In this document: piece after piece, positions 10,266 to 50,137 of the stretch | Layout: the number at the start of each line of letters is the position of its first letter | Position numbering within the stretch: position 1 is the first letter of the stretch | Assembly: GCA_965218095.1 (NCBI GenBank) | Contig: OZ244587.1 | Span: 1,120,001 to 1,184,000, forward strand | Reading direction: 5' to 3' | DNA length: 64,000 bases | Source: Candidatus Poribacteria bacterium | Lineage (GTDB): Bacteria; Poribacteria; WGA-4E; PCPOR2b | Position numbers and translations under genes: made by a program | The notes under the pieces: model-generated | Told to the model about the DNA's origin: nothing | Database searches by the model: none | Seen by the model: only the letters and a program-made list of their open reading frames with translations

Positions 10266-12728
10266 AAATGCCCCGCATGCGGAAATCAAATTCTATCTGG
10301 TGAAGCGTTTTGTAGTCACTGCGCAACTCCTGTCGAATCGATTGTATCGCTCACACCTGAAACTGCTCAACTCTGTCCAAGTTGCAGTGTGAACAACCCA
10401 CTTGCATCGAAACAGTGCCGTGTCTGTGGCGCGGAACTCCAACGGCTGCTTGGGGGTGGAAAACAGATCCGTGGCTATCGAATCGAGAAGGTGCTCGGCT
10501 GTGGCGGCTTCAGCGCAGTGTATCAGGCGACAAAGGCTGGGGGCGCCTATGCCATCAAAGAAATTCCAATCCGTGACGCTTCAGCGCAGCGCTTGTTCGA
10601 CTTTGAAGCGAAGATCATGGAATCTTTTTCTCACGAGAACCTGCCTGAGTTTTTCGAGCGCTTTTCCATCGCTGATATGCGGAGTGGAGTCTCTGAACAG
10701 CGCAGCTACATCGTGATGGAATTCATCGAAGGGGAAACGCTTGATGCCAAGATTCGTGTCGCCGCTGCCAATGGTGGGTTCCTCAAAGAATCAGAGGTTT
10801 TATCATGGGGCGTGAAGCTGTGCGATGTGTTGGAGGAACTTCACCAACATGCGATTGTTCACCGCGATATCAAGCCCGAAAATGTGAAAATCACCCTGGC
10901 GGGCGAACTCAAATTGATTGACTTCGGAATCGCGAAGATTTATAATCCGCTCGATCCGAAAACACGCACAAGCGCACACGGGTTTGGCAGTCAAGGATAT
11001 GCGCCGCCAGAACAATATACAGGCAGAACAGATACCCGTTCTGATGTTTATGGTTTGGGCGCGACAATGTATCACCTCCTCACAAACGAGTCCCCGGTAG
11101 ATTCCAGTATGCGTGCGGCGCAGATTCAAGAACTGGAGCCAATCCGCAAACTGAATCCGAAGATTTCCAAGACGCTTGAACAGTCAATCCTCAAGGCGAT
11201 GCCGCTGAAAGCTGACGCCCGCTATCCGTCAATGCGGGATTTCAAAGAAGCGTTGGCGGGGCATGTGAGGGGTCAACTGTTCGAGTGTCCTCGCTGCAAG
11301 GTAATGAACGATCCAGGGACGGGGGCGTGTGTCTCATGTGGGACGCAGTTTGGGAAGCTTGAAACCTTCGTGATGCGAAACGGGGAAACGATTGTCGGTA
11401 TCGAGAATTTTGCACGAACCTGCGATGCCCACTGGAGTGATGCCGTCCACCATCTGAAAAATGGTGATTTCGAGGCATGGCTGGCAGCACAAGGGCGTGG
11501 CGATCTCAAGGCGGTCATGGAACAATGCAAGCGGAAAGAGAAAGACCCCAATTTCGCGCTTGAGTTGTTCCTCCAGGAAGTGAATCTCGTCAAGGCGCGG
11601 CACAAGCCGTTTAAGTTCTCTGACGGTGTGGTGGTTCGACGTTTGGCGGACCTTGCAGATGTCTGTGATCAACACTGGACTGTCCTCAAGGAGCATTTTT
11701 ATAGCCGCGACATAGAGCGGTGGTTGCTGACATGGGCGCGCCAAGATCTCATCGATCTTCAGGCAGAGATCAAGGAACAGGTTAACGATCGAGACATCGC
11801 CCTTGAGACGTTTCTGGAGAAAGCAGGGCTCGTCAAACGCCCACGTTTAGGGGCAACGTTGGAAGAGGATTGGGGGTCGATCCCCCTGGACACCGTTGAA
11901 ACAAAAACCGTTACGCTGGAGAACCTGTCACGTGGACGACTTTTCGGAAAACTTCGTCTCCTGACAGATCTACCCGGCCTCACACTCGAACGTGAAACAT
12001 TTCAAGGGGTTCACGACCAGATTCAGATTCGACTCGACACGAGCCAGTGTAAGGCGAAGAAGCGGTATCAAGCAACCGTGCAGATCGAAAGCAACGGTGG
12101 GACAGTCGAGGCGCCGATCCGTTTTCGCGTCGAACATCCATGGACGGAACTCCTGTTGAGCGTCGGAATGTGGGCAGGCATCATCGGCCTATTGACGACT
12201 TCGCTGCGTCTCGGACTTTGCGGCATCGGTTACCGATATTTTGGATTGGTTGAAATTTCTTTCTGGCATATTAAGCAACTTGTTTTGCTTCCTATTCCGG
12301 TGTTCGCCGTCAGTGGCGTCATTTCAGCGTTACCCCTCATCGTCGCATTCAGCAAGGTTGCTCAGAAGATTCGATGGTATCTTATCATTCCACTGACCAT
12401 CATCCTATGGGCAGGGATAAGCGTCGGATTAATTTTGGGGGCTATCAATGGCTACTACGGCTTAATCTGGGTTTTGCGGCAGATCGGCATCGGGGTTGAG
12501 TGGGGGAATGCGATTTGGGAGTTGCTGCTACCCTGGGGATTTGCCGGCGTCGTAGTGGGGATGAGCGTGGGCATTTATCGAAAAGCGAAAATTTATGAAC
12601 AATGGTGGCTGCCACTGACTGCCATCATGCTTCCTATCGCCGGGCTGATTGGGTTAATGTACTTCGGACAGAGGGGATATGCACCGAAGTTGGTCGAGGT
12701 AATAATGCGAATATGTCGTGCAATGTGA
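10263..12728 (+). CDS. Hanks-type Ser/Thr protein kinase with zinc ribbons, internal repeats and C-terminal membrane domain
   Basis: CxxC pairs; GCGGFSAVY, AIKE, HRDIKPEN, DFG, GYAPPEQ, SDVYGLG; several C-terminal TM helices. Confidence 0.92.
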   Translation: MKCPACGNQILSGEAFCSHCATPVESIVSLTPETAQLCPSCSVNNPLASKQCRVCGAELQRLLGGGKQIRGYRIEKVLGCGGFSAVYQATKAGGAYAIKEIPIRDASAQRLFDFEAKIMESFSHENLPEFFERFSIADMRSGVSEQRSYIVMEFIEGETLDAKIRVAAANGGFLKESEVLSWGVKLCDVLEELHQHAIVHRDIKPENVKITLAGELKLIDFGIAKIYNPLDPKTRTSAHGFGSQGYAPPEQYTGRTDTRSDVYGLGATMYHLLTNESPVDSSMRAAQIQELEPIRKLNPKISKTLEQSILKAMPLKADARYPSMRDFKEALAGHVRGQLFECPRCKVMNDPGTGACVSCGTQFGKLETFVMRNGETIVGIENFARTCDAHWSDAVHHLKNGDFEAWLAAQGRGDLKAVMEQCKRKEKDPNFALELFLQEVNLVKARHKPFKFSDGVVVRRLADLADVCDQHWTVLKEHFYSRDIERWLLTWARQDLIDLQAEIKEQVNDRDIALETFLEKAGLVKRPRLGATLEEDWGSIPLDTVETKTVTLENLSRGRLFGKLRLLTDLPGLTLERETFQGVHDQIQIRLDTSQCKAKKRYQATVQIESNGGTVEAPIRFRVEHPWTELLLSVGMWAGIIGLLTTSLRLGLCGIGYRYFGLVEISFWHIKQLVLLPIPVFAVSGVISALPLIVAFSKVAQKIRWYLIIPLTIILWAGISVGLILGAINGYYGLIWVLRQIGIGVEWGNAIWELLLPWGFAGVVVGMSVGIYRKAKIYEQWWLPLTAIMLPIAGLIGLMYFGQRGYAPKLVEVIMRICRAM

Positions 12729-38132: not shown

Positions 38133-39665
38133 TCACAACCTGCAATAAACCCCGTCGCTCACCAAATCTTTACACTGATAGCGCCAATCCTCCTCCGGAT
38201 TATCGAAGAGATAACGCGCCTCTTTCGGGCCCCAGGCGCCGGCTGGATAGCCATAAATGTTGATGTTCGGGTTTTCTTTCCAGGCCTTTAAAATGGGGTC
38301 CACAAATCGCCAACAGGCCTCTACGGCGTCGGCACGGGTGTAGAGCGTCGCATCACCCAACATGCAATCCAGCAGCAGACGTTCGTAAGCGGAGGGAAGA
38401 TAGGCATCTGTCAGATCCGAATAATGGAAGTCCATATTCACATCTTCGATCTGAAAACCGGCGCCCGGCATCTTCATCCCAAATTTCAGCAAAATCCCTT
38501 CATCGGGCTGAATCCAAATAATCAACTGATTACAATTACGACCGAGATTGTTTTGGGTAAATAAATGATGGGGAGTTTGCTTGAAATAAATGACTACCTC
38601 CGTCACGCGGGTGGGAAGGCGTTTTCCAGTACGGATATAAAAGGGGACGCCGCCCCAACGCCAGTTATCGATATACAATTTCAGTGCGACATAAGTTTCC
38701 GCCCGGGAATCCAGAGCGACATTTTTTTCACTGCGGTAAGCCAAAACTTTTTCGCCATGAATTATTGATTCTGTGTACTGACCACGTACCACATATTTCC
38801 CCACGTCTTCGGGGTTAATCGGGCGTAAAGACTGGAAGACTTTTACGGTTTCATTCCGCACGCCATCGGCGTCAAAACTGGCGGGCGGCTCCATGGCGAT
38901 AGTCCCCAGTACCTGCAGCAGGTGATTTTGCACCATATCCCTCAACGCCCCGCATTCATCATAATACCCACCACGGTTTTCCACACCGATAGATTCTGCG
39001 GCAGTCACTTCGACATGATGAATAAAATTCTGATTCCACAACGGTTCAAAAATGCCGTTAGAGAAACGAAACGCCAGCATATTTTGCACCGTTTCCTTGC
39101 CTAAATAATGATCAATTCGATAAATTTGACATCCCTGGAAGATCTGCTGTATTTTGGCATTTAAAGCTCGGGCAGAGTCGAGATTATAACCAAATGGTTT
39201 TTCGATAATGATGCGTTTCCATCCGTCCCCATTTCCCTGATGCTGCAGGCCCTGTGCACCAAGATGTTGAGGGATAATTCCATACATACTGGGTGGGGTG
39301 GACACATAAAAAATATAATTCTCCCCGGTCTTTAATTCCCGGTCTATTTCAGAAAGCCTAGCTTTCACTTTTTCATATTCTGCGCCATCATTGGTATTGA
39401 TGGATTGATAATACAATCTTTTTGAAAAAACCCTGAGCAATTTCATCTCGACCGGCTTTCTCTTGCTATACAATTTGACGCCTTCGATCATCCGTTTTTG
39501 AAATGCCTCATCCGAAAATGTCGTTCGACTGACTCCTAACACGGCAAATTGCTTTGGAAGCACGTTTTGCTGATACAAATCAAAGAGCGCCGGCACGAGT
39601 TTTCGCTGGGTTAAATCTCCAGATGCGCCAAAAATGACCAGGGTACAATTGTCAGGTAGTTTCAT
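38133..39665 (-). CDS. zwf: Glucose-6-phosphate 1-dehydrogenase
   Basis: IFGASGDL..RKL.PAL, IEKPFG, RIDHYLGKE, RDMVQNH, RTGKRL, AYERLL.D. Confidence 0.96.
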   Translation of the reverse strand: MKLPDNCTLVIFGASGDLTQRKLVPALFDLYQQNVLPKQFAVLGVSRTTFSDEAFQKRMIEGVKLYSKRKPVEMKLLRVFSKRLYYQSINTNDGAEYEKVKARLSEIDRELKTGENYIFYVSTPPSMYGIIPQHLGAQGLQHQGNGDGWKRIIIEKPFGYNLDSARALNAKIQQIFQGCQIYRIDHYLGKETVQNMLAFRFSNGIFEPLWNQNFIHHVEVTAAESIGVENRGGYYDECGALRDMVQNHLLQVLGTIAMEPPASFDADGVRNETVKVFQSLRPINPEDVGKYVVRGQYTESIIHGEKVLAYRSEKNVALDSRAETYVALKLYIDNWRWGGVPFYIRTGKRLPTRVTEVVIYFKQTPHHLFTQNNLGRNCNQLIIWIQPDEGILLKFGMKMPGAGFQIEDVNMDFHYSDLTDAYLPSAYERLLLDCMLGDATLYTRADAVEACWRFVDPILKAWKENPNINIYGYPAGAWGPKEARYLFDNPEEDWRYQCKDLVSDGVYCRL

Positions 39666-39917
39666 TTTTTTCTCCCGCGTTTTCAAGCTTCAATTTTTTT
39701 TCTTAACAGCGTGGCCGCTAAATTGCTGACGCAGTGCAGCCGGGACTTTCATTGGAAAGGGCAGCGGTATATGTTAGTGACTTTTCTTGTTCGCAGAGGG
39801 TTAAGTTTATCGATCAATTCCTCCGAGTTCAATATTTTGGCTCATGTCAAAAGAAAGTGCAAAAGTGTTAAAAAATCCACGAAATCATTGGTGTGAATTT
39901 TGCCGTTGCACGAAGTC

Positions 39918-40330
39918 TTACTAAAGTTTGGACAATTTGTTTGCAATTTATGTAGTGTTATCAAGGGTTTGTTGAATATCGGGTGAATATTCGGCAATTA
40001 AGTGGCTTGAGGGATTGTTGCAGAAAATAATCACCTCTCGTGGCACCTAAGCACCTTGAAAACGAAAATCTGTCTGTTTTCCAACTGCGTATCGGCATCA
40101 TTTTGGCAGATGACCGCCGGATTCGATGGGACGTGGCAATCGCTTGGCAGGTTGCCAACCTGCGCCACGACGGAGTTTAAGCCCATGTGATGGAAATGTT
40201 CAATGTTGATGAAGCCTTTTGCCTCCACATACTGTAAAGTCAAAAGAGAATGATTTCTGAGTGCTGTTTCGCATCACCAGAAGGGGTCTCAACCAGCCAT
40301 CTGTGTTGTGAATTGTACAAACTTTAGTAA
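39918..40330. mobile_element. Internally deleted IS / MITE with 20-bp terminal IRs
   Basis: TTACTAAAGTTTGGACAATT vs AATTGTACAAACTTTAGTAA (19/20); no intact transposase. Confidence 0.7.
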
Positions 40331-40627
40331 TATTAACTTAGAGAGTTTATTAGTAGTATCGACATCATAGACCCTATTCAAAACAGAAGTGATGACTTTC
40401 CGATAACTTTCTAAGTCGCCTGCTCTGCCAATTTCAGGTTATCGGACATTTCTGATCTTCTCAACAGAGCGTTTGATATTATCAAACGAAAAAGTATGAT
40501 CCGCAACAAACATCTTCTCCTTGAATGCCAGCATAAATACTTCGCACTCCTCAAGACTTCCATTGAAAATAACTTCATCGGCTAGGTTGTCCTTGTTCTA
40601 ACGATACACGAGCCTGAGTTTGTATTG

Positions 40628-41131
40628 TTATATTCGTTTTCTAATCTTTTCGTCTTTGCCGCGTGGTTCTATTCCTTCCCATCTTCTACCTTCGATTTTG
40701 CTTTTTTTCATGTGTGCTTCGTCTATCATATCTCTTAATGGTTTTGCGTATGATATAAAGTAGGTTTCTATTTGTTCTTGTGTCATTGGTTTATTTATGT
40801 CCTCTTTCAGGTCTATGAGGCTTTGGTGGTGTAGGGCTAGAATACGCCGGATTGCTTCGAGTGAGTCGTTTATGCTTCCTGATAGGTCTACTAGCTCGGC
40901 TCTTGTTTGTCTTCTTCCTAGTATTTGTGATATTTTTTCAATCTTCCAGCCTAAGTCTCGTATTTTGATTTTTAGTTTATGTCTTATCTTTTCTGACTCT
41001 GGTTTATCTGGTTTTCTTTTGGCTGCCCAAATGCCCACTGCTATTGCTCCTATTGCTCCTATTGCTCCCAATATTCCTGCTATGAGTCCTATTGTGTCCT
41101 TGTATTCAATCAAAAATTCTATAATACTCAT
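40628..41131 (-). CDS. Hypothetical protein, N-terminal TM helix plus coiled coil
   Basis: 167-aa ORF with RBS; strongly A-rich coding strand; GAI x3 from a 9-bp tandem repeat. Confidence 0.7.
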   Translation of the reverse strand: MSIIEFLIEYKDTIGLIAGILGAIGAIGAIAVGIWAAKRKPDKPESEKIRHKLKIKIRDLGWKIEKISQILGRRQTRAELVDLSGSINDSLEAIRRILALHHQSLIDLKEDINKPMTQEQIETYFISYAKPLRDMIDEAHMKKSKIEGRRWEGIEPRGKDEKIRKRI

Positions 41132-41187
41132 TGTCTTCCTTTCTGCTGCTGTGCCGGGAGCGCGGCATCCCGGCTATTGATAGTTAG

Positions 41188-41217
41188 AATATCCGGTAAG
41201 TTTAATTATCGGATATT
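41188..41217. other. dif-like recombination-site candidate
   Basis: AATATCCGGTAA-GTTTAA-TTATCGGATATT: inverted arms (11/12) with 6-bp spacer, intergenic. Confidence 0.55.
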
Positions 41218-41226
41218 TTAAGGAAT

Positions 41227-41793
41227 TTAGGGCTGTCCATTAGTTAATTTTCTAAAACGGTGATAATTACCAGGAATTTTCCAAAACTCTTCAGGGCTGT
41301 CCCATAATGAATTCGGCACCTTGTATTGTGTGCCTTTCTTATTTATACTGGTGTGAACCATACTGATAAATCGGAACTTATAATCATTAAGAAAGTCGTT
41401 TTCTTTCCAGAATTTTTTCCCGATACATTGGCAATACTTCACAACACATGCCGCTCCTTTTAATTGCTCCGTGACATGCCTTGCCGTTTTAGAATCCTGG
41501 GTTTGAATTTCGATACAGATAATCCACTTCCTCCCCTTTTTATCGTGAGATACAATCACAAAATCAGCACGCTTACGCTCGCCTTTTAATCCCTTAAAAA
41601 CATAAACGGGTGTCTTAAAAGTTTCCGCCCCTATAACAATTGAGTCGTCAGGCAGCCCAGTTATTCTTACAGTTGTATCTGCCTGCTTATCTGTTAGTTC
41701 AACAGAAAGAGATCTACCTTGTCCCTGCTGTAACGGCACTTGGACATCATTATTACAAACAAGCATTTCTCTCAATATTTCAATATCATTCAT
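41227..41793 (-). CDS. Putative PD-(D/E)xK-fold nuclease
   Basis: RKRADFVIV...ICIEIQ...QLKGA; starts immediately after the ATPase. Confidence 0.6.
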   Translation of the reverse strand: MNDIEILREMLVCNNDVQVPLQQGQGRSLSVELTDKQADTTVRITGLPDDSIVIGAETFKTPVYVFKGLKGERKRADFVIVSHDKKGRKWIICIEIQTQDSKTARHVTEQLKGAACVVKYCQCIGKKFWKENDFLNDYKFRFISMVHTSINKKGTQYKVPNSLWDSPEEFWKIPGNYHRFRKLTNGQP

Positions 41794-41798
41794 AGGTT

Positions 41799-43460
41799 TT
41801 ATTCTGCCCCCCATATAATGTCTTCCTGAATGCGATTCATTCTATCTATTGTCTCATCAAAACTGGAGGCTTCAATGCCAAGCACGGGATCGATCTTAGC
41901 CTCTACGAAAGTAAATCCGCTTTGGCTTTCCTTTTGCTCCTTCTCTAATGGCAGAGCCATATAGACCTTGACTTGGTCGGATCGGATTAACTCCGAATCC
42001 TGATAACCGTTTTCTTTAGCAATCCTTTTCAGGTGTGGTTTATCGTGGTTGAGCATGATGAGGGTGTTTAACTCTTTGATGATGTAATCGCTGTGGGTTG
42101 TGATAAAGATTTTGACACCTAAGTTTACCAATTGCGCAAAAAGCCTAGCAATGCGACACTGATTTTCCGGATGTAGGTTTAACTCTGGCTCATCTACCAT
42201 AAGCAGATGCCCTTTTTGAGCAACATGACGCAGATAAAAACCCATATCGAATAGCGAACGAACGCTACTTGAACTTTCAGCCATCTTCAATTCAATCTCT
42301 GCCCCTTTGGGAATATAGGAGCGTTGATTGTCTTGTGTTATTTTATACTCGCCACCGATAATATCAGCGAAGTTTGCTAACACTTCAGGGTGTTCTTTGG
42401 CAATAAAACTCTGCATCTTCGTAATGTCTCCAAGTTTGCGTATAAAGTCCACATTTTCCTCTATCGGCATAGGATACCTCGGGTAAGAATCTGAGATTAA
42501 CGGTTGCGGCCTAACCTCTTGGTCCGCTTGCACGATCTGCTCTAGTAAACGGTGTCGAGCAAAATCAAGTTCTCTGTGGAAAATAGAGGCTCCGGTGCGT
42601 TCGACTGAAGATATAAAAGGAGACGGAAAATAATCGGAAAAAATAACGGTGCCGATAGCGGCGTTAATGAGGTCTTCTATCATGAAAGGGGTGTCATTTA
42701 GGCTTCCCTCCAATGTCGATCTAATTATTAACTCGTTGCTCCTCGTTTCCTTGGCAAAGGTAATGCCTCTCTCAGAACCGTATCTTATTTCGCCTGCCCA
42801 TCTTTTATCAAATATGTCAATTGGTCCTATTTTGATGTCAAATTTACTGTCGCTAAATAGTCCATCAGTTGCTGCAAAAACCTTCCGCTCCAGCAGGTGA
42901 TCGATATACCGTTTGTTTACTTCTGCAAGCAGTTGATCTGCCTGTTTAACATATTCTGTCAATTCAACTTTGACGCCACCTTCTGTAGACAATAGTCGGA
43001 TTTGACTGTCCGTCATCTTGAAATCTGCCAGTACCGCCCAAGACTTCAAGAAACCGTAGAGTGCATAGGTTGCGTAGGTTTTACCGGTGTTATTCTTGCC
43101 GCAAAGAGCGGTTAAATCTCCTAGCGTAAATTCTGCCTGTTTTAAGACACCAAAATTTTCTAACTCTATTTTCAGATCCCCGACCATCAATTCCTCTTTT
43201 AATCCGTCGCTATCAATGCTCCATAGCCCGCGTGTCGGATTATTTGCCTTACCGTCGTTTTTTAGTCTACTCAAACCGTGCACAGTAGGGCCTATTATCG
43301 TGGAGGTCTGCGGTAAACCTCCACAGCTAAGGTGAACTTCTGTTACTTTTTCTTCGATGTTCCGATAGGGAACAGCCGTCTGTTTATCAAAAAATTCTAA
43401 GATCAGATTAGCCGCAACTTTCGCTGTTAAAGGTTTGTTCTTGTAAGGGTAGTCTTGCAT
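41799..43460 (-). CDS. AAA_15/AAA_21-type ABC ATPase with extra N-terminal domain
   Basis: IELENFG, GKNNTGKT, SSSVRS, MVDEPELNLHP, ITTHSDY. Confidence 0.9.
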   Translation of the reverse strand: MQDYPYKNKPLTAKVAANLILEFFDKQTAVPYRNIEEKVTEVHLSCGGLPQTSTIIGPTVHGLSRLKNDGKANNPTRGLWSIDSDGLKEELMVGDLKIELENFGVLKQAEFTLGDLTALCGKNNTGKTYATYALYGFLKSWAVLADFKMTDSQIRLLSTEGGVKVELTEYVKQADQLLAEVNKRYIDHLLERKVFAATDGLFSDSKFDIKIGPIDIFDKRWAGEIRYGSERGITFAKETRSNELIIRSTLEGSLNDTPFMIEDLINAAIGTVIFSDYFPSPFISSVERTGASIFHRELDFARHRLLEQIVQADQEVRPQPLISDSYPRYPMPIEENVDFIRKLGDITKMQSFIAKEHPEVLANFADIIGGEYKITQDNQRSYIPKGAEIELKMAESSSSVRSLFDMGFYLRHVAQKGHLLMVDEPELNLHPENQCRIARLFAQLVNLGVKIFITTHSDYIIKELNTLIMLNHDKPHLKRIAKENGYQDSELIRSDQVKVYMALPLEKEQKESQSGFTFVEAKIDPVLGIEASSFDETIDRMNRIQEDIIWGAE

Positions 43461-43624
43461 AGTATTTTCTCCTCTCTCAATCTCTTGAAGTTTTACCAAA
43501 AGATACGTTCCTCCTTAGTGGCATTTGTCACTTGTCACGGCATCTTTCAAACTCCTCCGCCGTGAGCTGTTTTATGTTTGTCATGGATTACGTTGATCAC
43601 AACTTCTATATTCCAGTCAAATGC

Positions 43625-43654
43625 AATATCCGATAAGAGAACTTATCAACCGTT
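43625..43654. other. dif-like recombination-site candidate
   Basis: AATATCCGATAA-GAGAAC-TTATCAACCGTT; left arm is the exact reverse complement of the right arm at 41206-17. Confidence 0.5.
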
Positions 43655-44249
43655 CCATGTTAATGAAGTTTGATATTTCTTTTTTACAATGAACCAAAAT
43701 CCATTTGTCTCACTCTCTTGCCTAAAACGAACCATTATCGCCCCGCGTGAAAACCACTACATTAGGGGACAAAACTAGACGACGCCTAACAGACATGGAA
43801 ATCTCCTATTGAATTTGCAATTTTCTTCATGGGATTCGGCTTTCTAGCCTTCATGCCCGGTCAATGGGTGTGGGAGACGCCACTGTGCAGTGGCGTCTCC
43901 CACGAAAGCCAATACAATTATACCATATTTTGCTATTTGAATCAAAACCTCCGCTCCGGCGATTTCTCCCTCATTTTCTGAGGAATGGTATACTCGATTC
44001 ACGGCGGTTTGAGTAGCATCACCAGGGGGTTGGTCAGTTTTGCTATCTCTTTTTCGAGTCGGCTCGCTTTCTGTTCCAACTGGTCTATTCTCGCTTGTAA
44101 CCTTTCGACTGTCTCTGCTAACATCTGATAACATCTCCCCTTCTCAACTATCATTCATCTTAATCCTCTTGTATCCTTCCTCTTGTGAACACCGACACAC
44201 AAGAGGAAAGCGCGGATGGCGTAAATGCAGCAAAAACTGAAACCTGAAT

Positions 44250-44277
44250 CTATCGTAGAATAGACATTATGTCTACT
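44250..44277 (+). other. dif-like site candidate
   Basis: CTATCGTAGAA-TAGACA-TTATGTCTACT versus B. subtilis dif ACTTCCTAGAA-TATATA-TTATGTAAACT (7/11 and 9/11). Confidence 0.45.
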
Positions 44278-44646
44278 CAAATGTATAGACAAATGTCTAT
44301 TAAACAAGCCGCCGCACATTTCGGAGTAACCGAAACCACAATTCGCCGACGGATAAAGGCGGGAAAGTTCAAAGCCACGCGCAAAGGCAAGCGTATCTAT
44401 GTGCACATCGAACTAGACACCGCGTCTAGACAAAATGCTCAAAATGTGCACTCACCTGATGAAACTATCAAGCTGCAGCAGTCCGAGATCAATCACCTCC
44501 GAGAACAGGTGGATAAACTCACCAGTCTGCTCGCCATGCAGACCCAGCAGAACAGCAACCTCATCGCACAGCTACCAAAGCCCCGCCCTTCGTTCACTAA
44601 CCAGATTCGCAGTTTTTTTACCCGGCTCATCGGAAGCCCCGAATAA
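44269..44646 (+). CDS. Excisionase-like HTH protein with coiled-coil tail
   Basis: MSIKQAAAHFGVTETTIRRRIKAGKF; C-terminal heptads. Confidence 0.8.
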   Translation: MSTQMYRQMSIKQAAAHFGVTETTIRRRIKAGKFKATRKGKRIYVHIELDTASRQNAQNVHSPDETIKLQQSEINHLREQVDKLTSLLAMQTQQNSNLIAQLPKPRPSFTNQIRSFFTRLIGSPE

Positions 44647-45340
44647 TCCACCACACAACTAAGAACACGCCATGCCCCATGGCAAAGGTAACGATGAAAG
44701 CCCCAAGCAGATCTCTCACCGCTTTCGCCCGTGCTTTCCATACCCTTTGTGGATGTTTGTTTTCCCATTCTTGATATTGCTTCTCTTTCTCTATCGCGTT
44801 ATCAATCATTTTTTCGAGTTGACCCTTCTTGAAAGACCTTGCTGCTGCCATCGACTGGACATCTGCCAAAATCTTTTCCTTCGGGGAAAAAGGGGGGGGA
44901 ATAGGATGAAGGTCTATACCGAACGCTTCCAACCTTTCATCGCTTGTCAGATCTTCTTTACACCAGTGGCGAACAAGTGACGGAGGCAGATTGAGTTGTG
45001 ATGCGATGTCCTTGATTTTCATGCCTTCGTTTCTCAATTTCCTTGCGCTCTGCTTGTCTTTGTCCTTTGCGGCTCGTTTTTTTTTATATGCTGCGATCTC
45101 TTTTTCATATTCAAGCAATTGATCCCAACTCTTTATCACAAGTTTTTTTATCTCACCCTGAATTGACCGAGGGCGATAAGTGGATGTGTGAAAATAGAAA
45201 TCCAAGTGTTCCGGCGGTTTGTGGGACGCTTGATATCCCCCTATCAACCCAATAAAGCCGACAGTGGCAAAAGCCCCAATAATAGAAGCTACCAGCCACA
45301 AGCGGTTGAATCCCCTGTGATACTTGTTGAGCCATCGCAT
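44627..45340 (-). CDS. Hypothetical two-TM protein with internal HTH
   Basis: RGFNRLW N-terminus, WIIRGF C-terminus, internal LRNEGMKIKDIASQLNLPPSLVRHW. Confidence 0.7.
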   Translation of the reverse strand: MRWLNKYHRGFNRLWLVASIIGAFATVGFIGLIGGYQASHKPPEHLDFYFHTSTYRPRSIQGEIKKLVIKSWDQLLEYEKEIAAYKKKRAAKDKDKQSARKLRNEGMKIKDIASQLNLPPSLVRHWCKEDLTSDERLEAFGIDLHPIPPPFSPKEKILADVQSMAAARSFKKGQLEKMIDNAIEKEKQYQEWENKHPQRVWKARAKAVRDLLGAFIVTFAMGHGVFLVVWWIIRGFR

Positions 45341-45345
45341 AGTTA

Positions 45346-46266
45346 TCACTTCCCCTTCCCATAGAAGAACCTTGCGACCGCGCCCCGTTCCGCGAGCTCC
45401 GCTTTGGCATAATGCGCCGGCATCTGTGGCGACTTCCACCTGCCTGCGTTCTGCATATCGACGACCGAAGCCCCAGCCTGAGCGAGCGAGACAGCACTGC
45501 CGACCCTGAGCGAATGACCAGAGATAAATCCTTCGACACCCGCAGTTTTGGCACGGGCTTGGATGATACGCCGAGCTGAGACGGTGGTGAGCCTCCCGCT
45601 TTGGACATGATCCCCGCGTCTGATATGCCTGAACAACGCCCCGCTTTGAATCTCAGCGCTTGTGCAGTAACGATCTATCAACTTCAGTGTGGGACCGCCA
45701 ACATACAATACCTCGCCCCGACCCTCCTGATCGGTCTTGGACGATCTTATCCTCAGTGTGTTCTTGTGCAGATCTCCGACATTGACCGCGACGGCTTCCG
45801 AAATTCTCAACAGACAATCGCTCATGAGCCTGATAAGCGCTGCGTCTCGAAGCCCTGCGATCGTTTTATCGGCTTCGGCAAGGGTAACAACCCTCAACAT
45901 CTCCTCGCGCTCCACGCCGTCCACCTGCCCTTTGCCGCGTTCCTTCCCTTCACGGCGGATACCTGCCAATGTCTTACTGGTAACTTCACCAACGATCTCA
46001 ATGCCATGATTCTTTGCCAACCACTTCGCCGCGGCAACCACCTGTGCGATCGTCGAGGGGGATTTGCCCTCAGTGTGAAGCTCGGTGATGTAATCCGCCA
46101 GTCGCCCGTCGGTTAAGATCTGACCACTGAGCCATGCTTCAAGCTCCCTCGATAGTCTCTGGTATCGCTTGAGCGTGCTATCTGCGATACTCGATTGAAT
46201 CAACTCTTTCGTCTCTTGGCGGATAGCGAGTTCTGTTTTCTGTTGCCGTGTTACCAATTCGTTCAT
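45346..46266 (-). CDS. Tyrosine recombinase, Cre-like
   Basis: LRDAALI...LRISE, SKTDQ.G.G, SGHSLRVG, GRWKS..M..HY: complete R-K-H-R-W-Y set. Confidence 0.93.
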   Translation of the reverse strand: MNELVTRQQKTELAIRQETKELIQSSIADSTLKRYQRLSRELEAWLSGQILTDGRLADYITELHTEGKSPSTIAQVVAAAKWLAKNHGIEIVGEVTSKTLAGIRREGKERGKGQVDGVEREEMLRVVTLAEADKTIAGLRDAALIRLMSDCLLRISEAVAVNVGDLHKNTLRIRSSKTDQEGRGEVLYVGGPTLKLIDRYCTSAEIQSGALFRHIRRGDHVQSGRLTTVSARRIIQARAKTAGVEGFISGHSLRVGSAVSLAQAGASVVDMQNAGRWKSPQMPAHYAKAELAERGAVARFFYGKGK

Positions 46267-46589
46267 GTATTCACTCCTCTCAATTGAGCCTCGCCCCGGT
46301 CGGTGAGATGCCAGCACCTCTGTTCGCGATCATAAAGGACTTCAACTAGCGTTGGCTCTTGGGTAGCGAGGCAATTCATGTCAATTGAGCCGGTGAGTTG
46401 CTGGTGTTGGTTCTTGGCAATCAACTGAACAATCGTGTTAATGAATGCGTATCCATGCTCACCCCTAATGGCAAGGGGCTGATTCATGAGGGTAATATTC
46501 AAATCTGCATAGCTAGTGCCGGTGATTTCAAAGACTTCCTCGACATTGACTTGAACTTCCTGGCTTATTCTAATTGGATCTATTTGCAT
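46263..46589 (-). CDS. Hypothetical protein coupled to the recombinase gene
   Basis: GGAGG RBS; stop overlaps the recombinase ATG (ATGA). Confidence 0.6.
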   Translation of the reverse strand: MQIDPIRISQEVQVNVEEVFEITGTSYADLNITLMNQPLAIRGEHGYAFINTIVQLIAKNQHQQLTGSIDMNCLATQEPTLVEVLYDREQRCWHLTDRGEAQLRGVNT

Positions 46590-46628
46590 GGGGCTGTCCT
46601 CCGATTTTGTTCATGATCAATCATCCTG

Positions 46629-47201
46629 TTAAGGTGCGCTCCACTTGATATTCCCCATCGCATCTTCGACGATGACCGCTGCGCCTGCCCCGTTGTCCTC
46701 TACTTCCACCATATTCATATGGTCATCCGAACTGACCAACGTAATCCCTCTGCCATCGGCACTTCCCCTGCGTCCCAACGTTACAAAGCTGTGCCTATCG
46801 TGGCTTCGTAGAGCCAACCGTTGCGTGAATGCCGCGTCCGCTGGATCACATAGTAACACCTGATTGCCCTTCTCCTCTTCGCTTAGTAACCAAACCCCAA
46901 TACCACGATTATTCTTATTGCTTATCATGATAGAATTCGCGTCATCGTGGACACTTAACGCCATCTGTGGAGTGCCTGCCTTATCCGACAGTCTTATCAT
47001 ATTCCCATCCTCACCACTAATCAGATCAATCATGTGTTCCCCCGCGTGATTGACCACTGTGAGCCGGGAACACACAATATCATCAAATACCCCACTTCGC
47101 TGTGCAATCAACGGCGGTGAAACAATCGCCCCGACCGCAAGCCCAATTAACATGATTACTGCCCCTAACCCCATAGATCTGACACAGATTCTTCGTTTCA
47201 T
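46629..47201 (-). CDS. Hypothetical exported beta-strand-rich protein
   Basis: Signal-like N-terminus, 'FDDIVCSRLTVV..G' then short beta repeats; start may be later. Confidence 0.65.
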   Translation of the reverse strand: MKRRICVRSMGLGAVIMLIGLAVGAIVSPPLIAQRSGVFDDIVCSRLTVVNHAGEHMIDLISGEDGNMIRLSDKAGTPQMALSVHDDANSIMISNKNNRGIGVWLLSEEEKGNQVLLCDPADAAFTQRLALRSHDRHSFVTLGRRGSADGRGITLVSSDDHMNMVEVEDNGAGAAVIVEDAMGNIKWSAP

Positions 47202-47265
47202 GCCCTGCTCCTACTATCCCCTTGGATGGGCACCGATTGACTGGGGATGTCGCACAATCGGCGTT

Positions 47266-47295
47266 AATGTTCGGTAAAATGATTTACATAAATCT
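47266..47295. other. dif-like site candidate
   Basis: AATGTTCGGTAA-AATGAT-TTACATAAATCT; overlaps a XerD-like arm (TTATGTAAATC, minus strand 47281-91). Confidence 0.4.
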
Positions 47296-47445
47296 ATTAT
47301 AACCGATGCGATGCCCAGATTGCAACGGGAAACCCTGCCATACAGCGTGCTTTTTATCTTGTAATATATTGCATGGGATATTATAATAAAAGGAACGCAG
47401 AATATTGTTCTGAATATCCCAAAACACAGGGAGGGAGGGAGGATT

Positions 47446-47643
47446 GTGAGGGAACGCTACACCGAAAGACTTACCATCAACCTGACAGAAACTTTGAAAG
47501 ACAAAATCAAGAACGCTGCCGCTAAGTTGGATTGGAATGTTTCTGATGTTGTGCGCGAATGTGTAGAGGTTGAACTCTCCCGGCTCATCGACCGTGAAAC
47601 CAAACGGACAAAACGTAGGACACAGCAAAACGATAACTCGTAA
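47446..47643 (+). CDS. CopG/ribbon-helix-helix-like DNA-binding protein
   Basis: RLTINLTETLKDKIKNAAAKLDWNVSDVVRECVE; GGAGG RBS. Confidence 0.7.
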   Translation: MRERYTERLTINLTETLKDKIKNAAAKLDWNVSDVVRECVEVELSRLIDRETKRTKRRTQQNDNS

Positions 47644-47710
47644 AACCCACGCCAACACTGAGCCGGGCAGTTTTTTAGACCCCGGACAATTTATAGGACA
47701 GGAGCTGAAT

Positions 47711-47890
47711 ATGAACATCAAGAAAACGCTTCAGGGGTAGGAGGAAACACTCGCCCAAGAAGCAAAGGACGGGAACGATGATGCAATCGCTATCCTCGAC
47801 TGGATGAAACGGAACAGATGGCTCAAGTCGCAACGACAATTGAAACCAAAGCATTATCTCAAAGGCGTTAAACCTAAAATTGAGGTCTGA
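47711..47890 (+). pseudogene. Small ORF with internal TAG
   Basis: AGGAG RBS; MNIKKTLQG*EETLAQEAKDG... reads through to TGA. Confidence 0.35.
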
Positions 47891-47899
47891 TCACGGAAA

Positions 47900-48457
47900 A
47901 TGATGTCTTTGAACCCGAAACCATTGATAAAGAAAATCAACAGCTCCAATCACAACTGGAGGCAACCGAAGATGAACGATCAACGACGTCATGTCGATAT
48001 TTACTCCGCCGTGCCACAGGAACTGAAAGAACGTCGCCAGTGGGTCATGTGGAGATGGACAAAACGGGAGGACGAGGACAAGCCCACAAAACCGCCATAT
48101 AAGCCCACTAGTCGATTTCTCAATCGCCAGAAAGCCAAGAACAATGATCCATATACGTGGACGGATTTTCAGTCGGTGTACAAACCGCAACTCTCTGATA
48201 CACCTTGCTTCGGTGTGCTACCTGAAGATTATGACGATCGGGGAACAGAATGCGGCTGCGTTTTTTCAGGGATTGGCTTCGTGTTTAGAAAAGATGACCC
48301 ATACTGCGGAATAGACCTCGACGATTGCCTCTACCGCGATGAAAACGGGAAGATTCAGATTAAGCCCTGGGCACAGCCGATTGTTGATATGCTAACGCCT
48401 ATTGCCTACGCTGAGGTATCCCCAAGTGGTAAAGGTATCAAGTTTTGGAAGTCTTAA
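47900..48457 (+). pseudogene. Truncated primase-polymerase (phage NrS-1 polymerase-like N-terminal domain)
   Basis: PQELKERRQWVMW, TKPPY, NDPYTW, GIGFVF, GIDLDDC, YAEVSPSGKGI, then an abrupt stop. Confidence 0.82.
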
Positions 48458-48637
48458 CATGAAGCCAATATTTTATTATTTCCACATCCCTTAGTCTTAG
48501 CCTCGGCCTTAACCTTCATCGACATCCTGAAAAAGAGGCGGACGGAATGGTTTGTGCGTGATGAGCGACCCTTCGGATTGGGCTGCTGCTTGCGTCGTCA
48601 AGAAGACGTGTCCTGCCTTTGAAAGGTTTACTACAAT

Positions 48638-49045
48638 TCACCTCCTATCAAGGTAAAATTCAACGTCGGGGTTGGTAACGACCGGAATATGTACACGCAC
48701 TTCACCATCTTCGTAACCGAGATTAAAATTCTCATGTTCGCGGATGATAGATCCAGCGCTGAATTTAAGAAATTTGACTGATGTGAGAAGACACTTAAAA
48801 GTTCCTAGCACTTGCCGGGTGTAAGCACAGTAGGACAAGATCTCTGTATCAGCAAATGGTTACTGGGCAGCCGGATCAGGGTATATTTGGTTTGAAATAC
48901 CGCCGATAGAACGTAAAACAACCTCACTCCACTCACCTTCGTAAATGGCGGTATTAAAGTGGGGCCTCCATTCATTTGATGAAATTTGATCAAGGTCGGC
49001 ACGGAGATGATCCGCGTCAAATTCAAAAGGAAGCTCAAAACTCAT
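48638..49045 (-). pseudogene. Aspartyl/asparaginyl beta-hydroxylase-family remnant
   Basis: LPFEFD...WRPHFN...YEGEWS; TAA at 48860; IREH...EVRVHIPVVTNPDVEFY; truncated. Confidence 0.72.
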
Positions 49046-49057
49046 AAATCACCCTTG

Positions 49058-50137
49058 TTATTCTTGTCTAATCCGGCGCTCGAAAGCACGAATTTCTTCC
49101 CCGCCCTCCAGAACGCCTATTTCTAGGTGAAACTCCCGGACTTCGCCGGGCTGGATGTACTGAAGGTAGTCATGCTTGCGGTTCCAGGCGCGACCCAGCA
49201 TACTGACATTGCCGGGTTCGATCCCCGTTACATAAGTCCCTCTGTGGAAGTGCTGCCAATGGGTGACGACAGGCATCTCCTGAATGGGGAATTTCCAGTA
49301 CAGTCCCAGTTGCAGGTTGTCGTTAATTAAGCCCACATGCACGTTGCCCTCAGCATCGGCGACGGGACGGTGTATGTACACATCGTCGTGCGCTTCTGTC
49401 TGCGGCATGAGAGCTACTTCGTAATCGTCGGGACTTACTTCCCGGTCTTCCAGCCATTCCGTGGTCTTCTCGCTGTTGAGAACCAGGCGGGCGCCGGCAT
49501 CAAGGAGCGGGAAGCCCGGATTGGTATGGTAGACGAACATCAGCGGCGAGCCATCCACACTAAGATTCTCGATACGGTCGTGGATGCGCAGGCATTTCTC
49601 GCCCAGCACTGTGGAGATCGCTCGGGTGAGTTCCAAGTTCGTGCCGAAGACTACCGCCTCGCGCATCCTGCCGCGTACTCGCACCACGTAATCCTCTCCT
49701 TCCCAGCCACAATCGGCTACGACACCTTTGGCTGGGATAAAGGAGAGGCGGCCGTGCAGGCCCAGTTCCTCATTTTCTTCGTCGGGGTCCACTTCCGGAT
49801 GGCCGGTGAAGATCATGCCGCAACTGGTCACGAGACCGCCAAAAAAGCCGCGCATCCAGCCATAGCCCTGGGGCTCGTAAAAGGCTGGTCCCACATCCCC
49901 GGTATTGCCGCGGAAACACAGGGACATCCCCTTATAGTGGGCGAAGGCGATATCCAGGGAGCGGCCCGGTAGGATGGAAAAACAGAGTCCGGAGGCATTG
50001 AAGACTTCAATCAGATCAGCGCCCTGTTCATTCCCTTCTACCAGTTCCGCCCGACGGGCTGAAGCCAGTTGGGTCATATCTCCGACCATTTCCAGGAGTT
50101 GCTTTTTTGTGTACTTTCGTCCAAAAAGCTGTGGCAT
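49058..50137 (-). CDS. DUF4432 / aldose-1-epimerase-like protein
   Basis: ILPGRSLDI, FFGGLVTSCG, LHGRLS..PA, YHTNPGFPLL, YVTGIEPG. Confidence 0.85.
   Translation of the reverse strand: MPQLFGRKYTKKQLLEMVGDMTQLASARRAELVEGNEQGADLIEVFNASGLCFSILPGRSLDIAFAHYKGMSLCFRGNTGDVGPAFYEPQGYGWMRGFFGGLVTSCGMIFTGHPEVDPDEENEELGLHGRLSFIPAKGVVADCGWEGEDYVVRVRGRMREAVVFGTNLELTRAISTVLGEKCLRIHDRIENLSVDGSPLMFVYHTNPGFPLLDAGARLVLNSEKTTEWLEDREVSPDDYEVALMPQTEAHDDVYIHRPVADAEGNVHVGLINDNLQLGLYWKFPIQEMPVVTHWQHFHRGTYVTGIEPGNVSMLGRAWNRKHDYLQYIQPGEVREFHLEIGVLEGGEEIRAFERRIRQE

Follow-up and report, generated by a model that had tools for sequence, protein, structure and literature searches.

Dif-like sites border replaceable gene cassettes in chromosomal arrays of Candidatus Poribacteria

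A 64,000-nucleotide stretch of a Candidatus Poribacteria genome (contig OZ244587.1, positions 1,120,001 to 1,184,000; hereafter the window, from genome G000) contains short inverted repeats in the gaps between gene blocks, close to a gene for a Cre-like tyrosine recombinase. The question raised by this locus is whether the repeats are recombination sites that delimit exchangeable gene modules, and which enzyme would act on them. An initial annotation had proposed that dif-like sites bracket three gene blocks here, with host XerCD or the adjacent Cre-like enzyme as the actor. All the strings quoted in it were found where it had placed them, and each quoted site was scored against an arm matrix derived from 10 unambiguous sites.

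The site family has the consensus AATrTCCGATAA-N6-TTATCGGAyATT, a 12-6-12 inverted repeat whose canonical form, AATGTCCGATAA-N6-TTATCGGACATT, has palindromic 12-bp arms. With an inner GATAA-N6-TTATC and a spacer fixed at 6 bp, the proposed Xer/dif-like geometry held. When the whole of G000 was searched for arms of at least 9 bits each, 10 inverted pairs were found at a spacing of 6 bp and 0–2 at each of the 79 other spacings in the range 0–79; at up to six mismatches, 22 inverted arm pairs had the 6-bp spacing, compared with 1–6 for any of the remaining spacings between 0 and 15. The arms are thus not scattered without fixed spacing, the outcome that the annotation had named as adverse to its reading, and the 6-bp spacing is strongly enriched. 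With at most one mismatch, the pattern was present in 36 of 41 related genomes, while the control, the pattern read backwards, was present in one of the 41. By family, exact sites were found in 24/25 (f1), 10/10 (f3), 5/100 (f2), 2/4 (f4) and 0/11 (other families). The site family is far beyond chance.

Within the window, the initial list of sites was sustained in part. The site at 41188–41217 (AATATCCGGTAA-GTTTAA-TTATCGGATATT) scored 41.6 bits, the top of the genome and unmatched by any other genome position at the same spacing; it lies between the stop of a 195-aa gene and the start of a 167-aa gene, separating two cassettes. The site at 43625–43654 was confirmed as a hybrid head site of 21.4 bits (genome rank 12), in which a good, canonical left arm (AATATCCGATAA) and the spacer GAGAAC are followed by an odd right arm (TTATCAACCGTT), and the whole of it is conserved in four other genomes. 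The half-arms at 40395 and 40439 are real arms of the family, the left (ACTTTCCGATAA) fair at 11.9 bits and the right (TTATCGGACATT) perfect at 21.0 bits, but they stand 32 bp apart and therefore do not make an arm-6-arm site. Such pairs at 32-bp spacing number only two genome-wide, and 40395–40450, the distal end of the array, is either a degenerate or a split site. The other two candidates are not members of the family: 44250 scored −9.6 bits, equalled by about 24,000 other genome positions, and 47266 scored 4.7 bits, a level at which spacing 6 gives 261 pairs compared with a mean of 268 at other spacings. In three relatives the sequence orthologous to 47266 is without the CCG core. Since 47266 was one of its two brackets, the HTH/recombinase block is not bracketed by sites as had been claimed. 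The TAGACA/TGTCTA palindromes local to 44250 are a motif different from the dif-like family.

Read from its head, the window array consists of a leader, the hybrid site at 43625, a PDC-M47 pair, the site at 41188, an orphan 167-aa gene and the degenerate end at 40395–40450. The leader (43655–43945, minus strand) adjoins the odd arm and contains a promoter-like match, TTGATT-17-TGnTATAAT at 43945–43917, which is directed into the array and is a consensus match only. It is 89% identical in G003 over 43629–43935, and a 59-bp core (43629–43687) is 97–98% identical in G017 and G022; the leader is single-copy and present in 7 of 41 genomes, and the combination of leader and hybrid site occurs in these seven only. 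The two-gene defence cassette (41227–43499, minus strand; PADLOC and Pfam) encodes a PDC-M47B-like protein of 195 aa (41227–41814, minus strand; PADLOC 179.3 bits) and a PDC-M47A/PD-T4-4 A-like AAA ATPase (41799–43499, minus strand; PADLOC 595.4 bits for M47A, Pfam AAA_15 and AAA_21), the M47A family match of which begins at residue 109, so that the true start may be near 43187. The 167-aa gene (40628–41131, minus strand) had no Pfam, NCBIfam or PADLOC match and, of the 121 genomes of the order, was found in G000 alone. On the other side of the leader lie a 125-aa HTH_17/excisionase-like small DNA-binding protein (44269–44646, plus strand; Pfam HTH_17 35.1 bits, NCBIfam 'excise' domain 24.3 bits and under its cut-off), a 270-aa ORF with weak HTH matches (44627–45439, minus strand) and the Cre-like tyrosine recombinase (45346–46269, minus strand; 307 aa from ATG, with the ORF reaching to 46317; Pfam Phage_integrase 57 bits). 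Contigs of run X10 skip 43965–45337, so that there the recombinase stop adjoins the leader.

The whole feature is held in a strain-variable island of 8.9 kb (39834–48733). The evidence comes from contigs: in one from run X7 (2,996 nt, depth 24), 39833 is followed immediately by 48734, and the island bins have a depth of about 7–9. Neither end of the island is a dif-like site, and end repeats were looked for and not found. The excision or inversion junctions anticipated at the sites were not seen at any of them in the assembled contigs examined, in which loss of the whole island was seen.

Array loci were picked by the analyst from clusters of pattern matches, with ORFs taken from our own greedy calls. 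An overlap of more than 15 bp with a called gene was seen for 14 of 67 sites, compared with 4,839 of 5,600 random 30-mers, in agreement with the claim that the sites lie between gene modules. They are intergenic and sit at gene 3' ends: of 55 upstream stop codons, 10 were supplied by the TAA of the arm itself and 27 lay no more than 14 bp away, the next start codon followed 14–100 bp downstream, and the flanking genes were co-directional in 49 of 59. The cassettes are small, co-oriented and mostly orphans; cargo includes complete anti-phage systems, with the PDC-M47 pair in the window and, in a cassette elsewhere, a type III restriction-modification system. An 80-aa cassette is common to loci L055 and L019, and a 96-aa cassette of the 2.86-Mb array of G000 is 87% identical in G016 and begins 5 bp past the site. 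A second structured element of ~75 nt, an imperfect hairpin that is array-specific, was also observed; it gave no match in an Rfam search.

Homology-block ends fell within 20 bp of a site centre in 40 of 802 cases, compared with 0.44% for random positions. When G022 was compared with G014, shared flanks of 93–94% identity were found to terminate at two sites, between which the 15.1 kb of one genome and the 5.4 kb of the other are nearly all unrelated. At orthologous loci the flank-side arm and spacer were identical, the cargo-side arm was different and the sequence beyond it was unrelated. The same pattern was seen between the window and G003, where homology stops at 43629, within the hybrid site, with the odd arm and spacer identical, and in the locus pairs L055/L056 and L067/L068. 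Cargo replacement falls exactly at the sites, and the module borders in related genomes coincide with sites at nucleotide resolution, contrary to the second outcome that the annotation had named as adverse, borders that do not coincide with sites. The annotation had asked whether homologues of each module end at sites. Borders lay inside sites at several loci; in four other genomes the ATPase/nuclease pair has homologues without flanking sites, which counts against the mechanism favoured below.

The 69 sites have 45 distinct spacers, with recurrent classes between genomes and loci. Same-spacer pairs numbered 39, compared with about 1.1 expected, an excess that is inflated because the pairs include orthologous positions. 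Inverted same-spacer pairs occur in G019 and G015, and the spacers of xer-linked sites were not seen at cassette sites. The recurrence of spacer classes agrees with the suggestion that differing spacers would limit recombination between sites.

A gene for a Xer-like tyrosine recombinase lies outside the window, at 860655–861557 of G000, and is the only full canonical Xer-type gene of that genome. One match per genome was obtained in 29 of 41 relatives, and counted by family the orthologue was found in 21/24 (f1), 5/5 (f3), 0/6 (f2) and 2/5 (f4). A full site with the same arms stands 137–257 bp upstream of the gene in 28 of 29 related genomes; the exception, G019, has a half-site only near xer. 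The comparison with a chromosomal dif called for by the annotation thus gave a match, between the cassette sites and the candidate dif beside the genome's only full Xer-type gene, and site and gene have the same phylogenetic range. Extra half-sites are present at the xer promoter. The nearest solved relatives of the Xer-like protein are XerA (5hxy) and XerD, with the catalytic motifs aligned, and its scores lie under every NCBIfam Xer cut-off (XerC 194.9/335, XerD 192.5/330, XerA 180.8/220, XerS 103.8/267). Inverted 12-bp arms, one catalytic Xer-type gene and linkage of xer to a site, three of the marks of a single-recombinase Xer system, are present. As regards two further marks, a position at the replication terminus and dependence on FtsK, dnaA of G000 is at 2.71 Mb and the xer-linked site at 0.86 Mb, GC skew is noisy, and the FtsK_SpoIIIE family gave a weak match only (25.7 bits). 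The proposal of a host Xer actor would be kept in altered form, as one Xer-like recombinase on palindromic arms and not as XerC plus XerD.

On balance we favour, with some reservation, the interpretation that the arrays are dif modules on the chromosome, which the single Xer-like recombinase would exchange at sites with matching spacers, as has been proposed for the pdif modules of Acinetobacter. The sites would be extra copies of the lineage's dif-like site; each 12-bp palindromic arm would bind one recombinase monomer, and strands would be exchanged in the 6-bp spacer. Lying at cassette 3' ends, the sites would mark off local modules of the chromosome. With symmetric arms, the spacer alone would set the identity and direction of a site: same-spacer sites would recombine, and different-spacer sites, the xer-linked one included, would not. 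A module between two different spacers could be swapped for a module with the same spacer pair in two recombination steps, a cointegration and then a resolution, with incoming or sister DNA as the partner. In engineering, cassettes are exchanged between heterospecific lox sites, and such logic would be the counterpart of that method in nature. We infer both the two-step exchange and the acting enzyme, which by association with the sites is probably the host Xer-like recombinase.

It is unlikely, in our judgement, that the arrays are instead a self-contained integron analogue, in which the window-type Cre-like enzyme would recognise the odd arm or all arms, capture cassettes at the hybrid head site that follows the leader promoter, and shuffle them, and the likeness to the xer-linked site would reflect mimicry or shared ancestry. 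The best solved relatives of the window recombinase are Tre and Cre (E 3e-11), and its catalytic residues (R, K, HxxR, W, Y) are present and aligned. The order recombinase, leader, hybrid site and co-oriented cassettes is found in the window, G003 and G011; of the eight Cre-like copies or fragments in G000, five lie within 2 kb of a site, and one perfect site lies ~8 bp past a recombinase stop codon. Three of the seven leaders are within 2 kb of a Cre-like gene; this and the five G000 copies count against exchange by the Xer-like recombinase. Site-linked copies fall mostly outside a large clade of unlinked copies, and only the window-type subfamily stands at array heads, behind a conserved leader and hybrid site, in some arrays. 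In G092 (family f2) the eight sites all lie on a single contig and follow the Cre-like gene, and a search at E 1e-20 gave no Xer orthologue, which likewise counts against exchange by the Xer-like recombinase; as a metagenome bin of 91% completeness, G092 may be mis-binned or be missing the gene. Set against these points, none of 20 Cre-like homologue loci (398 kb) has a dif-like site. G014, G015 and G019 have 6, 9 and 2 sites and variable modules yet no Cre-like match, while G021 and G029 have 15 and 12 Cre-like matches and only 4 and 2 sites. The leader and hybrid site of G017 and G022 have no recombinase nearby, and the arms equal those beside xer in the 28 genomes noted above. The Cre-like gene is not the general partner of the sites.

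It is likewise unlikely that the two enzymes are combined, in an integron analogue built on the chromosome-dimer system, where a mobile Cre-like platform would capture cassettes and the host Xer would shuffle those with matching spacers. The platform would comprise the window-type Cre-like recombinase, the leader promoter and the hybrid head site and would move between Poribacteria lineages; the Cre-like enzyme would act on the odd arm and the host Xer on the canonical one, and the ~75-nt hairpin would serve either as a further, attC-like junction or in expression. If true, cassette arrays would have been invented independently here, as stores of defence systems and orphan genes in unculturable symbionts.

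That the sites are relics, either scars of past Xer-dependent (IMEX-like) integrations or decayed dif duplicates near which ordinary island turnover happens to end, is very unlikely. One weak arm at many sites, the split distal end of the window array, the gain or loss of the whole 8.9-kb island with non-site ends and the lack of site junctions in contigs would suit such a history, but the arms stay near consensus across an order while spacers vary, several independent loci have breakpoints that, resolved to the nucleotide, lie within sites, spacer classes recur, and the arrays of G000 (at 1.16, 2.86 and 5.43 Mb) lie away from the xer-linked site. It is hardly credible that the sites are regulatory palindromes without a recombination role, operators or terminators for a dimeric protein and possibly for the Xer-like protein as a repressor, since their intergenic position shortly upstream of start codons and the half-sites overlapping the xer promoter region in G000 and G014 would fit, but neither homology ending inside sites with replaced cargo nor recurrent spacer classes would be explained, most sites have no following T-run, and no terminator-like site was called within 40300–44400.

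To our knowledge, modules bounded by Xer sites have so far been described almost only on Acinetobacter plasmids, and their movement is still debated; among the titles listed in a literature search, none described a dif/Xer system in Poribacteria. Exchange by the host Xer-like recombinase, if correct, would place the same module logic on the chromosomes of a distant uncultured phylum and in a simpler form, with one recombinase, symmetric arms and spacer-only identity. It would give a clean natural setting in which to study how a Xer recombinase exchanges cassettes between matching spacers, would be evidence that cassette arrays can arise from dimer-resolution machinery, outside integrons, and would also define the dif/Xer system of Poribacteria. 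Site scanning would offer a route to accessory and defence genes in sponge-symbiont metagenomes.

The available text of PMC11705084 describes Acinetobacter pdif modules as having inverted or divergent central regions, with no excision and with recombination only between matching central regions; further papers on these plasmid modules are PMC6449649 and PMC12907356. As here, the modules in that text (PMC11705084) are bounded by mimics of the host chromosomal dif with an ATAA-N6-TTAT core, and the two sites that flank a module often differ in their central regions or carry them inverted. Modules also recur in different contexts, and here different cargo is found at the same locus or site pair. 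The Poribacteria sites differ in being chromosomal (all copies lie on chromosomal contigs of 5–7 Mb) and in belonging to an uncultured sponge-symbiont phylum, and they combine palindromic arms with a single Xer-like gene, whereas pdif sites have alternating XerC/XerD arms and are plasmid-borne. Unlike pdif modules, the cassettes here are small, co-oriented and mostly orphans, with a site at the gene 3' end that sometimes supplies the stop codon; their cargo includes defence systems, whereas pdif cargo is drug resistance genes, and some arrays also possess a conserved leader together with a hybrid head site and a second structured element.

With the single-recombinase systems XerS/difSL, XerH/difH and archaeal XerA (PMC2731167, PMC3325230, PMC5357621), the Xer-like protein shares conserved catalytic motifs, and with XerS/difSL the linkage of the xer gene to its site. 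Unlike in those systems, many extra site copies bound cassettes here, and the protein scores under all the NCBIfam Xer cut-offs. IMEX (PMC9226527), integrative elements such as the CTX and TLC phages that exploit Xer, also use a mimic of the host Xer site, often with one degenerate arm, to which 43625 may be compared; unlike IMEX, the arrays are not at the xer-linked site, and no cassette is a phage or plasmid genome. The likeness to Cre/loxP lies in the window recombinase, which among solved structures is most like Cre, and in palindromic arms and spacer-defined identity, the logic of two-site cassette exchange. The sites here are 12-6-12, in contrast to 13-8-13, and the Cre-like family is mostly not beside such sites.

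Integrons are built from IntI, attI, attC and Pc. Like them, the present arrays consist of compact, co-oriented cassettes, many of unknown function and some with defence cargo, and have a recombination site at each 3' end; in 7 of 41 genomes there is a head site beside a leader whose promoter is a consensus match only, sometimes beside a tyrosine recombinase. Unlike them, they have no IntI: the integron-integrase model TIGR02249 gave 86.6 bits with the Xer-like protein against a cut-off of 265 and no match to the Cre-like protein at E 0.01, and the NCBIfam Xer and integron models were all far under their cut-offs for the latter. The recombinase is co-directional with the cassettes and often absent, and the cassette junctions, judged on their 30 bp, are duplex-type 12-6-12 palindromes and not attC. 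The arrays are thus integron-like, but use another site and probably another enzyme.

The dif-like sites of the window were found to be real and part of something larger than the initial annotation had seen, namely a lineage-wide family of sites bounding exchangeable cassettes, of which a single small array, together with a leader and a Cre-like platform, lies in the window. Each site consists of two inverted 12-bp arms around a 6-bp spacer and is named here by its window start. When the arm AATATCCGATAA was sought as an inverted pair, with up to six mismatches, throughout the Poribacteria genome G000 (a single contig of 6.35 Mb, GC 50%, in which the window spans C1:1120001-1184000), 22 pairs were recovered at 6-bp spacing, and the remaining spacings between 0 and 15 yielded 1–6 each. 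With a 14-nt arm matrix built from 10 clear sites and a threshold of 9 bits for either arm, 10 pairs were returned at spacing 6, against 0–2 at any of the remaining spacings between 0 and 79; the seeds of this matrix had 6-bp spacing, which makes its excess partly circular, and the mismatch count is free of that circularity. Direct arm pairs also peaked at a spacing of 52 bp, the cause being a tandem repeat of 66-bp period (G000 629848–630376) that contains the arm-like word GAAATATCCGATAT and has no relation to the sites. Many single matches to the arm core were likewise due to a dispersed repeat carrying TTATCGGATAAGG (flanks ATTTTTGACCATTGA... and ...TAAGTGTTGACA), present at 14 places in G000, for example at 252366, 372768, and 502730, and probably representing an insertion-sequence end. 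The exact site core was also present in six viral contigs (IMG/VR), a number that by our own estimate lies near chance level for such a collection. Viral contigs L097 and L100 (62–63% GC) hold the exact core within a longer palindrome, and distant tyrosine recombinases (27–33% identity) lie 0.4–0.7 kb from it.

The strings quoted by the initial annotation were all present where it had placed them in the window. Site 41188 scored 41.6 bits, the best or near-best of the genome. At site 43625 (21.4 bits), the left arm was good and the right arm odd. This odd arm, ACGGTTGATAA, has seven copies in G000, one of which lies ~340 bp beyond the last site of an array at 2.86 Mb with a partner arm that is not a site. 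The supposed half-arms at 40395 and 40439 proved to be two arms with a gap of 32 bp between them. The proposed site at 44250 scored at background (−9.6 bits) and was discarded; the start of the HTH_17 gene is overlapped here by two TAGACA...TGTCTA palindromes (44250–44300), possibly an operator separate from the dif-like family. The 47266 candidate was also at background (4.7 bits), the region had no CCG core in three relatives, and the suggestion that this position brackets the recombinase block was abandoned with it, the position not being a site.

Clear sites were located in G000 at 0.862, 1.161, 1.164, 1.871, 2.318, 2.860–2.863, 4.424, 5.427, 5.433, and 6.300 Mb. Three arrays are present, at 1.160–1.164, 2.859–2.863, and 5.427–5.433 Mb. 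The 2.860–2.863-Mb cluster comprises six sites within 3.3 kb, one with a 7-bp spacer. Its genes are all co-oriented with a site after each, the TAA of the arm serving as the stop codon in two, and 25–35 bp, with a ribosome-binding site ahead, lead from the site to the next start. An IS-truncated Cre-like gene has its stop codon ~8 bp before the perfect site 5427482 (5.427 Mb); this gene is interrupted by a transposase-like ORF that reads from the other strand (L002:6208-6999; G000 ~5.4262–5.4270 Mb). The 5.5 kb separating this site from the next hold a type III restriction-modification system, with scores of 604.9 bits for Mod and 492.4 bits for Res. In the window, sites 43625 and 41188 enclose PDC-M47, a candidate defence system of two genes (595.4 and 179.3 bits), and the 167-aa orphan protein of the next cassette had no homologue in the 120 other genomes of the order (present in 1 of 121). 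An RNase H cassette gene (L001:9554-10125) is probably a pseudogene, a short tandem duplication near 9920–9960 having split it.

The geometry of the cassette borders was analyzed for 67 sites at 28 loci, with ORFs called by our own greedy heuristic. Of the 67 sites, 14 shared more than 15 bp with a called gene, compared with 4,839 of 5,600 random 30-mers. The genes flanking a site were co-directional in 49 of 59 cases. No more than 14 bp separated the site from the upstream stop in 27 of 55 cases, and in 10 of 55 that stop was the arm's own TAA.

The prediction that module borders in related genomes would coincide with sites was upheld in several comparisons. The window is homologous to G003 (89%) from 43935 down to 43629; this homology ends within site 43625, and the cargo differs beyond it. 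When 29 loci, which had been picked for holding sites, were each compared with all the others, 40 of 802 homology-block ends lay no more than 20 bp from the centre of a site, against 0.44% of positions drawn at random from these loci. In G022 and G014, orthologous loci have flanks that are 93–94% identical and end exactly at two sites; between these lie 15.1 kb with further sites versus 5.4 kb, nearly all of it unrelated. At both borders, the spacer and the flank-side arm are identical, including the rare variants TCTGATAA and TTACCGG, and on the cargo side the outer bases of the arm are different, with unrelated sequence beyond. The same pattern, in which flank-side arm and spacer are kept, was observed in L067/L068 and at five hybrid head sites, those that pair a canonical arm with the odd arm. 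A gene for an 80-aa product is common to the arrays of G017 and JAJEDB (73%), a 96-aa cassette gene of the G000 array also occurs in G016 and G009 (87%) with homology beginning 5 bp past the site, and a 450-bp module stands ahead of different sites at two G022 loci. The ATPase pair did not follow the prediction: its homologues in G017, G022, G013, and G007 (69–76% nucleotide identity) had no sites within the 17–19 kb examined, and this cassette therefore exists outside site-bounded contexts too.

A second array element of ~75 nt was found between some cassettes, directly upstream of a ribosome-binding site and ATG. Copies lie at L001:10558-10652, at L074:9287-9382, 10707-10802, and 11057-11152, at L002:14207-14302, and near 2.5406 Mb in G000. 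Of the 24 array loci (477 kb), 19 carry the element, in 31 copies overall, and the 53 control loci (20 Cre-like, 29 xer, and 4 ATPase) are free of it; the three G000 copies are all near dif-like sites. On the 5′ side of the 80-aa cassette, G017 carries this element where JAJEDB has a dif-like site. The element forms an imperfect inverted repeat of 13 pairs, with 82% of cells paired versus 36–52% when the partners were slid. Covariation in this helix was modest, being reached by 3 of 500 shuffles, and RNAalifold gave a 5-pair helix only. No Rfam match was obtained at E values up to 1 for L001, L061, and L074.

Eight Phage_integrase matches were detected in G000. The 301-aa Xer-like gene at 860655–861557 was the best by far (134 bits), the others being the Cre-like family and fragments. 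The scores of its product resemble those of XerC, XerD, and XerA but fall under every curated cut-off, and the nearest solved structures were XerA (5hxy) and XerD. Immediately upstream of the gene are one full site (spacer GAATAC) and two further right arms, one adjoining the start codon. Exactly one match per genome was present in 29 of 41 relatives, with a high-scoring site 137–257 bp upstream in 28 of the 29, and the xer-linked spacer varies little within a genus (13 of 16 loci of genus g4 have CTAATC). The exception is G019 (L024, L072), where only the promoter-proximal half-site is left at the Xer-like gene; this genome has exactly two full sites elsewhere, with the same spacer, in inverted order and 4.5 kb apart, which may represent an invertible segment or a relocated dif. 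By family, exact sites were found in 24/25 (f1), 10/10 (f3), 5/100 (f2), 2/4 (f4), and 0/11 (remaining families), a reversed control pattern giving 0 in every genome, and the Xer-like gene in 21/24 (f1), 5/5 (f3), 0/6 (f2), and 2/5 (f4). The phylogenetic ranges of site and gene agree. A site next to a single xer gene is the arrangement of single-recombinase Xer systems, as set out in excerpts of two reports (PMC2731167, PMC3325230). The cumulative GC skew of G000 is irregular, with a minimum at 2.53 Mb, a maximum at 0.38 Mb, and several reversals; dnaA lies at 2.71 Mb and the xer-linked site at 0.86 Mb. The sole FtsK_SpoIIIE (PF01580) match in G000 was weak (1453490–1453642, 25.7 bits), and any canonical FtsK may be absent or highly diverged.

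The adjacent Cre-like recombinase (window 45346–46269) had also been put forward as the enzyme acting at the sites. Cre/Tre was closest to it among solved structures (E 3e-11), with the catalytic residues aligned, and the family is multi-copy: it was found in 26 of the 41 relatives, and as many as 15 matches came from a single genome. A general partnership with the sites was not supported: none of 20 homologue loci (57–62% identity, 398 kb in all) had a dif-like site, and site counts across genomes do not track Cre-like counts. At 19 of these 20 loci (L077–L096, from 11 genomes), the common unit is ~0.8–1.5 kb, with only 254 bp at L088, and these short units may be a separate small mobile element. 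Some of them are followed by a palindrome beginning GTAGGGAACAAC. A closer association was seen locally, with a site within 2 kb of five of the eight Cre-like copies or fragments in G000. The leader, a conserved stretch of 50–130 bp next to the odd arm, is single-copy together with its hybrid site in 7 of 41 genomes; three of those seven, and also JAJEDB/G092, have a Cre-like gene no further than 2 kb away from the two. In contigs of sequencing run X10, the recombinase stop is joined straight to the leader. All eight sites of G092 are on one contig, behind its Cre-like gene, in a family otherwise without site and Xer orthologue, a pattern possibly arising from mis-binning. A tree of 27 Cre-like copies, with a midpoint root only, placed the window clade, a 76% paralogue, and the 5.427-Mb fragment outside a large unlinked clade, and JAJEDB within that clade on a long branch.

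The array region has a GC content of ~40–42% (window 39–44 kb) and is flanked by zwf (38133–39686) and a DUF4432 gene (49058–50137). An 8.9-kb island, 39834–48733, is absent from a more abundant co-occurring strain, as one contig of run X7 (depth 24) joins 39833 to 48734; depth over the island in this run was ~7–9. No repeats were found at the island ends. One reading fits the evidence both for and against a Cre-like role: the Cre-like enzyme would move the platform or island, and the Xer-like enzyme would work the cassettes. The absence of the whole island from the strain in X7, with ends that are not dif-like, supports this division of work. The strain comparison used Logan contigs, in which rare junctions are invisible, and left out the small-share runs X1–X6; among the contigs compared, no single-cassette join ending at a site was found. 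Cover in run X11 was nearly nil over 40670–41136 (the 167-aa gene), and no contig bridged the gap. The contig ends near 43658 and 41253, weak evidence in themselves, may be explained by branching at sites. Two repeats were also noted in this region. A MITE-like unit at 39918–40330 has 20-bp terminal inverted repeats (95% complementary), and its first 73 bp are multi-copy in related genomes, with ~20 copies listed in G022, for example. A ~125-bp repeat at 43809–43931, inside the conserved leader region, has many copies in related genomes and holds a perfect 16-bp inverted repeat (43870–43885/43888–43903); one G022 copy lies 41 bp from a dif-like site.

A total of 45 distinct spacers was counted among 69 sites, giving 39 same-spacer pairs, some of them at orthologous positions, versus ~1.1 expected under uniform spacers. 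The spacers CCGAGT and GACCTC form a pair that is found, with its order kept, at two loci of a single genome, and the variable locus is bounded by GAAATA and GCCCCG spacers in G022 and G014 alike. No xer-linked spacer was seen at a cassette site among the site lists examined. For Acinetobacter, extracts of a published study state that most module-flanking Xer sites are inverted or have divergent central regions, that excision was not seen, and that recombination is confined to closely related central regions, leading to a model of cointegration and resolution (PMC11705084). The Poribacteria data fit this model; symmetric arms would leave the spacer as the sole determinant, a simplification relative to Acinetobacter. 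The literature search, as far as its partial texts extend, returned no description of this dif-like cassette system. The system has the look of an integron and appears to work as the Acinetobacter dif modules do, yet it lacks some of the features that define each.
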